Assembly: GCA_964016885.1 (NCBI GenBank)
Contig: OZ024757.1
Location: 16,492,001 to 16,556,000 of the forward strand
Reading direction: 5' to 3'
From: Eledone cirrhosa
Lineage: Eukaryota
DNA: 64,000 bases
A program made the position numbers and the translations under genes. Under the pieces are notes generated by a model. It did not search any database, was not told where the DNA came from, and was given only the letters and a program-made list of their open reading frames with translations. Shown one piece after another: positions 581-58,933 of this stretch; the stretch's first letter is position 1; every line of letters begins with the position of its first letter.

Positions 581-750
581 TTTAATATAGAAATGGCTTC
601 TACGGGAATAGAAATGTCTCATTCGGAAGAAATCATCGGGAAAGCCATGCTGATTGATTCCGAATGAAACAGTTCTAGTCCTGTAGAAGCCATTTTTATA
701 TTAAATATTTATACTCTGTTATGTTACCCCCGATTGAACCCGGGATAAAC
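581..750 (+). mobile_element. Family A palindromic element (PLE pLTR-like) with decayed hammerhead
   Basis: Arms ~580-626/658-706 plus 3' tail ending cccgggataaac in (TA)n; homologous to copies at 11556, 12227, 30915 and 53976. Confidence 0.75.
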
Positions 751-794
751 ATATATATATAGGTATATATATATATATATATATATATATATAT

Positions 795-989
795 AACGAA
801 GGAATTGTGGTAAGGAACCAGATGGACCATAACGCACCAAAGTACTCAATACTTAGGGTAGTAGAGTGGGTAATAGGAACGAGTAGGACCCCGACAGCAG
901 AGCTGAAGCCGTTTCGACAGCTATTTCTGAGTCCAGAAATACCCGTCGAAACGGCTTGAGCTCTGCCGTCGGGGTCATACTTGTTCCTA
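795..989 (-). mobile_element. Family B palindromic element (PLE pLTR-like) with hammerhead 3' half
   Basis: Tail 795-872, palindrome ~873-989 centred on tatttctg-agtc-cagaaata; GAAACGGC-TTGAGCTC-TGCCGTC; flanked by (TA)n. Confidence 0.75.
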
Positions 990-2120
990 TATATATATTG
1001 TTCATACATATATATATATATATATATATATATATATATATATATATATATATATATGTATGTATATGTATGTATTTATATATATATGTATATATATATG
1101 TCTATATATATATACGTATATGTATATATATATATATGTATATATGTATATATATATATATGTATATATATGTATATGGGTATATATGTGTGTGTGTGTA
1201 TATATATATATGTATATATACATTTATATATATAAATATATGTATATATATATATCTAGGGCGGGTAAAATTCCCGAGATCCATGGACGAGTTCTCTCCA
1301 GCGGTCTCTGTCCCTCATTATCGCTGCCATGTCCTGCATCTCCAACAGACCAGTGTCTGTCCTTAGGGCATCAACATACGTTAACCTTGGTCTTCCTCTT
1401 CTAGTGTGTCCATGTAGGAGCTCCCACAGGAGCACTGAGTGCAATGTCAACTCTGGATGTCGGTGAGCATGTCCAGCTAACCTCAGTCTCCTCTGTATAT
1501 GTATAAATGTTTATATATGTATATGTATATGTATGTATATATATATATATATATATGTGTATATGTATATATATATATATATATATATATACATATATAT
1601 GTGCATATACACATATATACGCATATATAAATATATGTATATATATATACATATATGTATATATATACATATACATATATATGTATATATATGTATATAT
1701 GTATATATATATATATATACATATATGTATATATATATATACATATATGTATATATATACATACATGTATATATATATATATATATATATATACATATAC
1801 ATATATGTATATACATACATATATGTATATATATAGATATGTATATATATACATATATGTGTATATATGTATATATATACATTTATGTATATATATATAT
1901 GTGTATGTATATATATATATGTGTGTGTGTATAAATATATGTATATATACATATATATATATATATATATATGAACATATATATATATGTGTATATATAT
2001 ATATGAACATATATATATGTGTATATATATAAATATATATATATATATATATATATATATATATATATATATATATATATATATATATATATATATATAT
2101 ATATATATATATATATATAC
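990..2120. repeat. (TA)n / (TATG)n / (TACA)n microsatellite field, interrupted by an RTE fragment
   Basis: Direct reading; source of the YIYIY ORFs. Confidence 0.95.
1256..1495 (-). mobile_element. RTE-clade LINE 3' end fragment
   Basis: Encodes ...[22 protein letters not shown]...DRDRWRELV, a typical RTE ORF C-terminus; near-identical copies at 54913-55222 and 29773-29912. Confidence 0.8.
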
Positions 2121-2340
2121 GGGAAAGTATCAACACATATATTTTTATTGTTTGACCCGAATTACTTGGTCGTTTTGTTTTGGCTGTGCGGATGATATGT
2201 TTAACCATCATCTCAGTGTGTTTGGCCCTTAACGTATGTTGTAGCTCTGATTCATATGATTCATCGAGCGCTTGCCACACATATCGGACGTTGATTTTCG
2301 TTAATTCCTGAGCCGAAAACGATTCTCGCTAATTTATATT
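2120..2340 (+). mobile_element. Family J TA-inserted element with GCTC...GAGCGCT tail hairpin
   Basis: aacgtatgttgtagctct resembles aaacgtatgttataactct at ~55970 and aaacgtattgttataaact at ~58300; bounded by (TA)n. Confidence 0.45.
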
Positions 2341-2369
2341 TGTGTATATATATATATATATATATATAT

Positions 2370-2557
2370 AACGAAGGAAATGTGGTAAGGAACCAGGTGG
2401 ACCATAACGCACCATAGTACTCAATACTTAGGGTAGTAGAGTGGGTAATAGGAACGAGTAGGACCCCGACGGCTGAGCTCAAGCCGTCTCGACGGCTAAT
2501 TCACAATTAGCCGTCGAAACAGCTTGAGATCAGCCGTCGTGGTTCTACTCGTTCCTA
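2370..2557 (-). mobile_element. Family B palindromic element
   Basis: Homologous to 795-989; centre hairpin GACGGCTAATT-CAC-AATTAGCCGTC. Confidence 0.78.
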
Positions 2558-3035
2558 TATATATATATATATATATATATATATATATATATATAGAGAG
2601 AGAGAGAGAGAGAGAGAGAGAGAGAGAGAGAGAGAGAGAGAGAGAGAGACATCTGTATGTATTTAACATGTTTCAATCCGGTAAATGATGGATAATAGGA
2701 AAGAATCGTAAAATCGTTAATGGCGTACACGACGAGCTGGTCGAATGGATTGAATAGAAGCAACAGTCGACTATTAATATAGAATTTTAACGTCCCCATT
2801 GAGTTAGTGAACGAACGCAGAGATAATCACGACATTGTGTGTTCATTCATTATGTTATCTGGTCTTTTCAACAATTTAATAGTGGCCATGTATATGAAGT
2901 ATGGGAAACCTTGAAATAATAGCTGCTGTAATGAGAGTTCTCCATGAAAAAACGTGTCGAATGCCTTCAGGCTCCCAACCTGAGACCGTATATTTTCTAA
3001 TATATGCGCTAATAAATACACACAACCTACTGCGA

Positions 3036-3980
3036 GGTGGTAGTGGTGGTGGTGGTGGTGGTGCTGGTGCTGGTGGTGGTGGTGGTGGTGGTGGTGGTGG
3101 TTGTGGTGGTAGTGGTGGTGGTGGTGTTGTTGGTGGTTGTGGTGCTGGTGGTGGTAGTGGTGTTGCTGGTGGTGCTGGTGGTGGTGGTGGTGGTGGTGGT
3201 GGTGGTGGTGGTGGTGGTGGTGGTGGTGGTGGTAGTGGTGTTGCTGGTGGTGGTGGTGGTGGTGGTGGTGGTGGTGGTGATGTTGGTGGTGGTGGTAGTG
3301 GTGTTGCTGGTGGTGCTGGTGGTGGTAGTGGTGGTGGTGTTGGTGGTGGTGGTGCTGGTGGTGGTGGTGGTGGTGGTGGTGATGTTGGTGCTGGTGGTGC
3401 TGGTGGTGATAGTGGTGGTGCTGGTGGTGGTGGTGGTAGTGGTGTTGCTGGTGGTGCTGGTGGTGTTGGTGTTGGTGGTGGTGGTAGTGGTGTTGCTGGT
3501 GGTGTTGGTGGTGGTAGTGGTGGTGGTGCTGGTGGTGGTGGTGATGTTGGTGCTGGTGGTGCTGGTGGTGGTGCTGGTGGTGGTGTTGCGGGTGGTGCTG
3601 GTGGTGTTGGTGTTGGTGGTGGTGGTAGTGGTGTTGCTGGTGGTGTTGGTGGTGGTAGTGGTGGTGGTAGTGGTGGTGGTGGTGATGTTGGTGTTGGTGC
3701 TGGTGGTGCTGGTGGTGCTGGTGGTGATAGTGGTGGTGCTGGTGGTGTTGGTGGTGGTAGTGGTGGGGGTGGTGATGTTGGTGTTGGTGCTGGTGGTGCT
3801 GGTGGTGGTGCTGGTGCTAGTGCTGGTGTTGGTGGTGCTGGTGGTGATAGTGGTGGTGCTGGTGGTGCTGATGATAGTGGTAGTCTGGTGCTGCTGCTGC
3901 TGATGGTGGTGGTCGTGGTGCTGCTGCTGATGGTAGTGGTAGTCTGGTGCTGCTGCTGATGGTGGTGGTGGTGGTGGTGA
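3036..3980. repeat. (GGT)n-based cryptic triplet repeat
   Basis: GGT/GCT/GTT/AGT triplets, with internal block duplications. Confidence 0.9.
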
Positions 3981-56999: not shown

Positions 57000-57225
57000 A
57001 TTATTTATTTTATTTATCTATTTTATTTATTTTATTTATCTATTTTATTTATTCCTTTTATTTTATTTTATTTTATTTTATTTTATTTTATTTTATTTTA
57101 TTTTATTTTATTTTATTTTATTTTATTTTATTTTATTTTATTTTTATTTTATTTTATTTTATTTTATTTTATTTTATTTTATTTTATTTTATTTTATTTT
57201 ATTTTATTTTATTTTATTCATTTAT
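57000..57225. repeat. (TTTTA)n pentanucleotide microsatellite
   Basis: Direct reading. Confidence 0.95.
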
Positions 57226-57232
57226 TGCTTTT

Positions 57233-57360
57233 ACGAGGGTCGGCTGAAAAGTTCATACGCTGACCGGATTTTCCGCTTGACTTTTCATCAGCCCAGGTTG
57301 AACATGTTGGTCCTCATAGATAACGAAACGTACGTACATGGTATGGCGCCGTTGTAGTAA
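57233..57360 (+). mobile_element. Mariner-like terminal fragment
   Basis: TACGAGGGTCGGCTGAAAAGTT terminus; related piece at 58721-58820. Confidence 0.55.
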
Positions 57361-57374
57361 CTGGCCTTAATAAT

Positions 57375-57680
57375 TATATTCAAACTCGCCCTACAGACTT
57401 CAGTTGTTCTATACCTTGGATATTTTTACCTACATATTACTATTATCTATATATATATACTGTAGTAAATGTTAAGTGGAAATATCCAAGAGTAAGAGCA
57501 CTCAGTCCATAGGACGAGTTTAGTATAAATAATTACAACAGTGACACAAACAGGTACTTAGATTTCGTTAGGTTCTGGGCCCAAATTTCTTCAGCCTTTT
57601 CATGACAGGCTGAAGAAATTTGGGCCCAGAACCCAACGAAACTTGAGCAACTGTTTATGTCACTTTTGTAATTATTTATA
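57375..57680. mobile_element. Family H: two tails facing across (TA)n, plus palindrome with decayed hammerheads
   Basis: Arms 57524-57597/57607-57680; arm consensus ACAGG-CTGAAGA...GAAAC-TTAA-GTA-CCTGT; tail 57460-57520 is the inverse of 57381-57447. Confidence 0.7.
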
Positions 57681-58498
57681 TATATAATAGCAACAGCAGC
57701 AGCAGCAGTAGTAGTAGTAGTAGTAGTAGTAGTAGTAGTAGTAGTAGTAGTAGTAGTAGTAGTAGTAGTAGTAGTAGTAGTTATTGTTAGGATAAAACGT
57801 TTGTATATATATATATATATATATATATATATATGTGCGTGTGTGTATTTATATATTATATATATAGTTGAGAATAAACCATAAGGTTGCATACAAAATG
57901 ACTCGGAGAGGTGAATCCAATCATTTGTTCATATAATTAATTAACTAATAATTAATTATGACGTAGAAGAAACTTGCGTTAATTAAGATATAATATAATT
58001 AACAATCTTTTGTCTTCTTTTCAATGTTTTATGTATATATATATATATATATATATATATATATATATATATATATATATATATGAATTAGTCGATCTCG
58101 TATTTACAGAAACCTAGCGTGGATGTTGTATGTTATATGTGATGTATATCGTATGCTATACGATATGCGTTATGTGTTGCATTCGATCTCCGCGCGATGG
58201 TCCAGGTCAGTCAAAATCTTTCCCTGAGTTTAGTCTTTTTCGTTGCTATGGCAATGCGGCTGGACTGCCGGTCGCTATATTTGATTTGCAAAGCTGTCTA
58301 AACGTATTGTTATAAACTGTGGGGTATTATTCTCCATCGAGTGCTAAAGCTACATTCCGAATCTGCATTTGTTAGCTTAGCCGCAGCCTAAAGCTTCGTT
58401 AATGCTGTACTAAAATTTGTATATATATATATATATATATATACAAATTGATTAAATCTTAACCATTTAACATCTCAGGCTATGTCATGTATCATTTT

Positions 58499-58551
58499 AT
58501 TTTATCTGATGAAGACGTACTGTTGTACGTCTGAAATATGTATAATAAAAT
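58499..58551 (+). ncRNA. Minimal type I hammerhead ribozyme (best-preserved copy; within element ~58444-58696)
   Basis: ATTTTAT-CTGATGA-AGACGTAC-TGTT-GTACGTCT-GAAAT-ATGT-ATA-ATAAAAT: perfect 7-bp stem I and 8-bp stem II; cleavage predicted after 58544. Confidence 0.82.
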
Positions 58552-58933
58552 TTAATTGATCACAAGAACATCTATTTTATTAATATTTGTATTTTAATAT
58601 TAATAACTCTGGAAAATTACTTTACTGTAGAGTGCTTCCAATCTACTGTAAAACTCATTCTTTGATATACTCATTGAATTTTGTTTAACTCTTTAATATA
58701 TATATATATATATATATATACACGAAAGTCGGCTGAAAAATTCATGGGTTAGCCAAGATACACTCATGGAGGGATGGAATGACCAAATGGGGTTTATTTT
58801 TCAACATAATCTCTGGAAAGAAACAATCACTTATTAATAAGGGGAGTTAAAATTTCACAGCTCTAGCATCACTCCTTCATAACCATACCTTGCATCACAT
58901 GCCTGTTGTTCGTTCAGAGTTGACTTGGAGCAA

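Follow-up and report, generated by a model that had tools for sequence, protein, structure and literature searches.

Short hairpin elements stud a 64,000-nucleotide stretch of the Eledone cirrhosa genome (3.0 Gb), positions 16,492,001-16,556,000 of contig OZ024757.1 (GCA_964016885.1), hereafter the window. We read these units as short pseudo-long terminal repeat (pLTR) copies of Hydra- and Neptune-type Penelope-like elements (PLEs) lodged in (TA)n runs, and the commonest families as likely complete, strong-stop-like complementary DNAs (cDNAs) of a capped, uncleaved leader RNA. A sequence-only reading had described nine lettered families (A, B, C, D, F, G, H, I and the 14783 motif, here M), to which we add family N. 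It took them for non-coding PLE- or retrozyme-like pLTR remnants to be mobilized in trans. The short copies, or stubs, are likely better read as by-products of autonomous elements, and likely dead ends, than as retrozymes or miniature inverted-repeat transposable elements (MITEs). The families are new, and we add the cap-G test, its control and the continuity between leader and open reading frame (ORF); the PLE clades and their architecture were known.

Stubs of the commonest families begin at a sharp edge, numbered +1. In unselected DNA, arm starts fall within -5 to +12 in 15 of 22 A, 30 of 37 B, 4 of 5 F and 2 of 4 M arms; two A, six B, one F and one M arm start further upstream. The edge is an A in an initiator-like context, and a TATAWAW box lies at -30, -30 and -31 in A, F and M, respectively, an arrangement with a chance of 0.007 per 6-nt window. 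An additional G often precedes this edge. Between the TA run and +1, solo B arms carry G in 60 copies, T (the parent base) in 25, A in 9 and C in 6, among the first 100 of 304 matches listed. After merging of neighbouring copies the extra G persists in 55 of about 94, and both B subfamilies show the excess. At an internal control site, the A at B +12, the corresponding counts are G 1, T 93 and A 6 (first 100 of 123 matches listed). Family A yields G 21, C 14 (parent), T 13 and A 5 before 53 distinct +1 starts. Passages on L1 and SVA in PMC4859970 interpret an untemplated 5' G of this kind as a copied cap.

The ribozyme cut site attracts no peak of starts in family A: about 9 direct starts fall there, versus 7-8 at each of two other TA-microhomology positions. 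Among the matches listed, 213 reverse-strand A matches start at about +1 versus 33 at +36 to +49, making starts near the cut roughly six times rarer. We rejected ribozyme-cut ends as templates; two A copies do begin near the cut (L317 and L336 among the sampled loci, which carry L numbers), but starts across the genome show no excess there. A splice acceptor at the B edge was considered and dropped, as no upstream exon is joined and TA runs abut the edge directly.

Stubs of two families correspond to the leader of a PLE messenger RNA. [quoted passage not shown] Because these segments continue into the ORF start, we read A +1 to +135 and F +1 to +216 as mRNA leader. In the sampled loci, no tail of B, C, D, G, H, I, M or N was seen to continue into an ORF start. 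Stubs lack the TATA box, apart from copy F2, which retains it. Their 3' ends occupy two fixed positions, one with the tail and one without, and the tail may sit on either arm, on both or on neither. Hairpin junctions vary among unselected copies yet stay near +1, and the two arms of one hairpin share the same subfamily base in 15 of 15 B hairpins (an 8:7 split).

A short sequence pair marks the inner end. We examined the tails of A, B, C, D and G (for example 31040-31107) and of F (53770-53845) for ACUC and GAGU. In all six resolved hairpins that are Hydra-type or untraced, ACUC follows the tail-less end by 0-12 nt and GAGU comes later. ACUC is out of range in F3, and four copies could not be resolved. 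By eye, F and N carry ACUCGUG a few bases past the tail-less end. The ACUC...GAGU tail element is thus a possible positioning signal for the reverse transcriptase (RT).

These features suggest a route from leader RNA to hairpin. The pLTR promoter would make a capped RNA comprising +1, hammerhead, tail and ATG, and the element's GIY-YIG endonuclease would nick both strands of a TA run. RT would initiate within the RNA, at either of two sites 70-220 nt from the cap, run off the 5' end and copy the cap as C. Both target ends would be extended on one RNA, or on RNAs of one locus, and the cDNAs would join head-to-head by microhomology to give arm, arm and one-sided tail. Stubs lacking the TATA box would be dead ends, and the hammerhead a passenger at this step. 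According to portions of a report on an anole PLE, the protein cuts and extends both strands in vitro, two internal RT starts define the tail, and hammerhead cleavage is not needed (PMC11167929). Priming of both target strands from two internal RNA sites, as in that system, would yield the head-to-head product directly.

Several models compete to explain PLE inverted copies, their tails and the role of the hammerhead: antisense self-priming, cleaved or circular templates, and internal initiation. Fixed 5' ends together with the extra G serve as a test from genomic DNA; its outcome favours sense RNA that is capped and uncleaved, in line with the one in vitro system. We are modestly inclined to a broader claim, that some 10^5 fossil strong-stop products record the normal behaviour of PLE RTs, which would copy capped, uncleaved sense leader from two internal starts on both target strands simultaneously. 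Palindromes would then need no antisense, processed or circular RNA, and ACUC...GAGU would position the inner start across Hydra families. In the literature outside subscription journals, Repbase, Dfam and most of the Craig et al. supplement, we found no specific description of a PLE stub with a cap-derived G or anchored to a transcription start.

A number of observations pull the other way. Arms entered the start counts only if they spanned the core motif, leaving later starts uncounted, and the junction-base and cut-site tallies were made by eye on the first 100 matches listed, with a few neighbouring copies included. At the control site, the count of the parent base is raised by TA microhomology. 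Neptune-type F shows the extra G only weakly (G 9, C 24, T 21 and A 7 of 61), and at the TATA distance B has a variant box only and N a C-led variant. Families C, D, G and I show no sharp edge, their best 8-nt windows holding 6 of 33, 2 of 10, 2 of 9 and 5 of 11 starts, and D, H and I are without a parent ORF. At least 40 copies share the arrangement of copy A4 at 98-99% identity, with an identical junction in 29 of 30 fetched, as would also be expected from a replicating hairpin. Drosophila virilis Penelope has been reported to use a TATA-less internal promoter (PMC2377424). We infer the +1 position, the capping and the promoter from DNA only.

Seven of the ten families can be traced to PLEs encoding RT and GIY-YIG. 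The proposed pLTR origin thereby stands for A, B, C, G, F, M and N, whose ORFs lie elsewhere in the genome, and D, H and I are untraced. By their motifs, A, B, C and G are Hydra-type and F, M and N Neptune-type. Parents of A, B, C and G were identified by motif and by tblastn, and their assignment to Hydra uses motifs and comparison by eye with a published alignment. The A parent ORF bears the Hydra signature (RWR, DKT, a CxCx5C linker and CxxC/CxH motifs), with a Pfam GIY-YIG match at only E 0.0013. For B (L084), C (L161) and G (L315), one clear locus each places the family after a Hydra-type ORF that displays the linker and C-terminal motifs. The A pLTR is upstream of the ORF in the 17 of 25 loci above and also downstream, in the same orientation, in loci including L203, L211 and L215.

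The Neptune-type parents have RT before the endonuclease (EN), a CX2-5CXXC linker and a CCHH motif, and are located in TA runs. Pfam finds RVT_1 and GIY-YIG in the M and N parents, and RVT_1 in the F parent, whose locus was chosen by its GIY-YIG match. Domain order and motifs point to Neptune for all three; the order excludes Naiad, and Nematis shares a linker. In its loci, family F is found 590-1050 nt beyond the GIY-YIG end, and in L061 and L068 the ORF is flanked by direct pLTRs. The corresponding distances are 311-569 nt for M, whose parent carries a Neptune-type RT and GIY-YIG ORF (L064, L065, L070), and about 920-1150 nt for N.

Upstream of family D lies about 1.6 kb of non-coding sequence. 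Neither the 25 loci of 3 kb nor the 10 loci of 9 kb showed an ORF consistently upstream in the same orientation. The long form of D (L298 7324-8901; also L297, L300 and L305) comprises about 1.6 kb of non-coding DNA, contains a 500-nt internal duplication, has a 5' boundary that is repeated, and is the sole remaining candidate for a non-autonomous PLE among these families. Parents of H and I, sought only among loci already sampled, were not found.

In the microsatellite-rich window, all 22 copies listed by the sequence-only reading are present, flanked by (TA)n or mixed microsatellites. That list was incomplete: N at 31358-31558 and an element with an intact hammerhead at 43059-43562 had been overlooked. 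The inverted arm, arm and one-sided tail layout holds in most copies and fails in the single arms F2, I1, I2, C3 and M, in B3 and B5 (internal deletions) and in G (tails on both arms). The families had been called unrelated; they are instead paralogous pLTRs belonging to two PLE clades, with a likeness of 73-78% between F and N. The absence of a PLE ORF from the window was borne out by tblastn with 15 PLE proteins, which matched only a SINE (short interspersed nuclear element)-derived N-terminal stretch of one query. The features of the window are as follows.

A1, 581..752, plus strand: Hydra-type leader hairpin with tail; decayed centre, without an intact hammerhead.
B1, 795..990, minus strand: hairpin; both arms begin near +1; 3' half of the hammerhead only; left-side tail.
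B2, 2370..2556, minus strand: hairpin; left-side tail.
A2, 11556..11743, plus strand: hairpin; the tail-less arm extends to +2 and carries the core, the tail arm runs from +15.
A3, 12227..12427, plus strand: hairpin with a passing hammerhead on each strand (12239-12291 minus, 12291-12337 plus).
F1, 13928..14103, minus strand: short Neptune-type hairpin from +83; ends before the ribozyme, no hammerhead.
M (14783 motif), 14612..14860, minus strand: single arm from +1; hammerhead 14783-14821.
I1, 16244..16442, minus strand: single arm; minimal hammerhead, mutated; no parent found.
C1, 24894..25280, plus strand: hairpin; a hammerhead in each arm (24937-25001 minus, 25083-25147 plus).
B3, 25726..25842, strand unassigned: B with internal deletion; tail fused to an arm beginning at +1.
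D, 26981..27538, plus strand: long hairpin with 150-nt tail; intact hammerhead in the inverted arm (27031-27088 minus); parent ORF not traced.
C2, 28843..29176, minus strand: asymmetric hairpin; core mutated; parent type Hydra (L161).
B4, 29234..29429, minus strand: hairpin; arms begin at +1 and +3.
B5, 30790..30884, strand unassigned: deleted B.
A4, 30916..31107, plus strand: young hairpin; sense arm +1..+135 corresponds to the Hydra ORF leader; hammerhead 30974-31024.
N, 31358..31558, plus strand: Neptune-type tail-less arm starting at about +1; absent from the sequence-only reading.
Further PLE 3' end, 43059..43562, plus strand: intact hammerhead 43309-43351; matches DNA downstream of the GIY-YIG ORF in L040.
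I2, 52641..52817, plus strand: single arm; minimal hammerhead, mutated.
F2, 53049..53338, minus strand: longer single arm, -69..+216; TATA box retained.
F3, 53494..53845, plus strand: hairpin +1..+216; U3-A8 variant hammerhead 53668-53705.
A5, 53977..54170, minus strand: hairpin; hammerhead 54058-54104.
G, 54359..54840, strand unassigned: full palindrome with a tail on each arm; degenerate core; Hydra-type parent ORF in L315.
H, 57460..57662, minus strand: decayed hairpin; core boxes and stem I present, stem II imperfect; no parent found.
C3, 58444..58696, plus strand: single arm with tail; hammerhead 58499-58551.

Hammerheads are far above chance in the window and are intact in a minority of copies. 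A relaxed type I descriptor gave 11 matches, whereas 60 block-wise dinucleotide shuffles averaged 0.28. These matches cover 8 of the 22 listed copies (A3, A4, A5, C1, C3, D, F3 and M) and one unlisted element, so the claim that most copies fold into a type I hammerhead holds for the enrichment and fails for "most". All five B copies retain GAAAC, stem III, GUC and the 3' side of stem I only, the 5' half including CUGANGA being absent; in the B parent the missing half is present upstream as a U3-A8 core, and short B copies begin inside its stem II loop. Among other copies that do not pass, G has a degenerate core, H lacks the stem II closing pair and both I copies are mutated, with an intact I hammerhead elsewhere at L140. 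At least one copy each of A, C, D, F, I and M passes the descriptor. Among the Rfam matches listed (the best 150 of 274 rows, and all 60 rows in a second scan) there was no hammerhead family, only sub-threshold matches to microRNA-type hairpins. The descriptor also finds dozens of further hammerhead families in 1.45 Mb of sampled loci. Several Neptune-type families (L031-L036, L051, L076, L079) have U3-A8 or more degenerate cores and a CCGG palindromic stem III.

Hammerhead stems covary. Stem I of A has 6 double-change cells in 11 sequences and stem II of C has 29 in 18; none of 500 shuffles reaches either score, and slid controls fall far lower. The sets consist of related sequences that pass the descriptor, and related sequences can exceed shuffles. 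Because the sequences are related and were chosen in this way, we read the covariation as parental conservation only: it supports conservation in the parents, not activity of the stubs.

Other routes from the same elements to hairpins deserve consideration. Stubs might derive from short capped transcripts that run from 3' or solo pLTR promoters into flanking DNA and are copied in trans, or hairpins might form by fold-back of one cDNA end instead of priming on both strands. Promoter-bearing pLTRs without an ORF are plentiful (2715 candidates for the A upstream region), and the concordance of arms in 15 of 15 hairpins and the short-loop junctions fit fold-back. The tail-less end, however, also ends solo arms (for example L241) and so acts as an RT start rather than a copy-back stop. 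Either arm, or both (L016, G), may bear the tail, and both arms may reach +1 with few spacer bases between them (L086, L013, L202). We regard this origin as unlikely, though worth keeping in view. Random 5' truncation and inversion of PLE insertions, with RT stalling at RNA structure to mimic a hotspot, is very improbable in our judgement. Passages of PMC8557442 describe 5' truncation with an inverted pLTR as the norm, the A edge coincides with hammerhead stem I, and starts scatter in C, D, G and I. Yet across A, B, F and M the edge shifts relative to the ribozyme while keeping its distance from the TATA-like box, and stalling leaves the 60 of 100 versus 1 of 100 G counts, among the matches listed, unexplained.

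Quite unlikely, too, is that the hairpins propagate themselves as retrozyme- or SINE-like non-autonomous elements, through transcription from host DNA, hammerhead processing and re-insertion in trans by PLE proteins. Near-identical 192-nt A4 units sharing one junction, the covarying A and C stems, and long D with its repeated 5' boundary and no ORF in 10 loci are what such elements might leave. Selection on the parents explains the covariation equally well, however, and the A4 copies were selected by the query, whereas unselected junctions vary. The 5' ends coincide with the presumed transcription start instead of the cut site, and half of the ribozyme is missing from B, the family with the most copies. 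Nor are the units arranged in tandem arrays, unlike retrozymes as portions of PMC7229834 present them; the window contains no head-to-tail array with a hammerhead per unit. A retrozyme-like nature is thus not borne out, and neither is the need for mobilization in trans: stubs have no TATA box, and a by-product of autonomous elements is the better reading. TA-targeting MITEs or fold-back DNA transposons would also be short, palindromic, TA-flanked and numerous, but the arms here adjoin directly, with a tail on one side only; single arms occur often, and the units are contiguous with RT and GIY-YIG ORFs. We find that identity hardly credible. For A, B, C, F, G, M and N it is refuted by the RT/GIY-YIG parents, and one-sided tails and solo arms do not match an element with terminal inverted repeats at both ends and a DDE partner.

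The parents resemble described EN-bearing PLEs, and an octopus Hydra family, Hydra-1_Obim, is already published; the value here lies in mechanism. Shared features of that clade, in passages of Craig et al. 2021 (PMC8557442), are RW[K/R], DKT, the CxCx5C linker, CxxC and CxH around E/N, a hammerhead and a (TA)n target; A-parent motifs line up by eye with the alignment published there. The families here differ from Hydra-1_Obim, and those passages do not describe leader-only copies or cap-G junctions. The F, M and N parents share RT before EN, the CX2-5CXXC linker and TA-run sites with Neptune-type PLEs, and are unlike them in the U3-A8 core variant of F and the more degenerate one of N. As in the PLE hammerheads of Cervera and De la Pena, the motifs here are type I with a short palindromic stem III, mostly single and dispersed, with opposite-strand pairs and the U3-A8 variant. 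In contrast, A, C, D and M lack the G10.1-C11.1 pair, and B copies begin in the stem II loop. Those authors proposed cleaved or circular templates, for which the 5' ends here give no support.

Head-to-head pLTRs with an optional tail, and with TATA and initiator elements in the pLTR, also appear in the Adineta vaga PLE palindromes of Arkhipova et al. 2013 (PMC3846280). Self-priming on an antisense template is proposed in passages of that paper, whereas here both arms end at the sense-strand start and solo arms carry the extra G. Neither the antisense-template nor the cleaved- or circular-template model predicts G at sense +1. The anole system, PAc Poseidon, shares two internal RT starts that set the tail, extension of both strands and dispensable hammerhead cleavage, in the portions of Frangieh et al. 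2024 (PMC11167929) that bear on it. PAc starts show no homology to the target, and its tail falls within the ORF. In the present families the tails precede the ATG, and T/TA microhomology is seen at several ends. Non-LTR retrozymes, as parts of PMC7229834 and bioRxiv 10.64898/2026.07.22.740005 characterize them, are likewise short, non-coding, hammerhead-bearing and PLE-derived. They form head-to-tail arrays processed to circles, unlike the solo or head-to-head stubs, which begin upstream of or inside the ribozyme.

The multi-family assemblage is a property of the whole genome. We sampled 39 unselected stretches of 10 kb at round coordinates (390 kb) and found about 45 copies of the ten families: A about 8, B 14, C 7, D 3, F 3, G 1, H 1, I 4, M 2 and N 2. 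This density of about 120 copies per Mb corresponds to roughly 3.5 x 10^5 genome-wide. The window, at about 360 per Mb, is some three times richer than average; that it holds an unusual community is not supported, such copies being ordinary in this genome. Four PLE endonuclease ends occurred in the same 390 kb, and a first look at the genome gave 10,595 GIY-YIG candidates. For annotators, several hundred thousand such hairpins may be misfiled as MITEs, SINEs or miRNA precursors. At G000:C3:187250085-187250329, four B starts follow one another at 74-nt intervals in a short head-to-tail series of B arms; such arrays are rare among the matches listed.

Other repeats share the window. Further PLE-like ends lie at 11219-11416, 25420-25609, 43609-43858, 52928-53018 and 9950-10010. 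A broken Helitron Rep/PIF1 helicase (Pfam PF14214, PF05970) occupies 39173-42888 and is followed by a repeat from 43001. A fragment of a long interspersed nuclear element (LINE) lies at 60432-61500 on the minus strand, with RVT_1 at 60778-61500; by eye, 35027-35999 and 4434-4823 resemble LINE C-termini, with no Pfam match. Homogeneous minisatellites span 6634-8640 (59 nt x 34) and 46756-49435 (88 nt x 30). A SINE-like repeat of about 190 nt has many copies, some in tandem, at 12636, 20227, 32673, 33113, 37386, 49832, 51790, 63285 and other positions.

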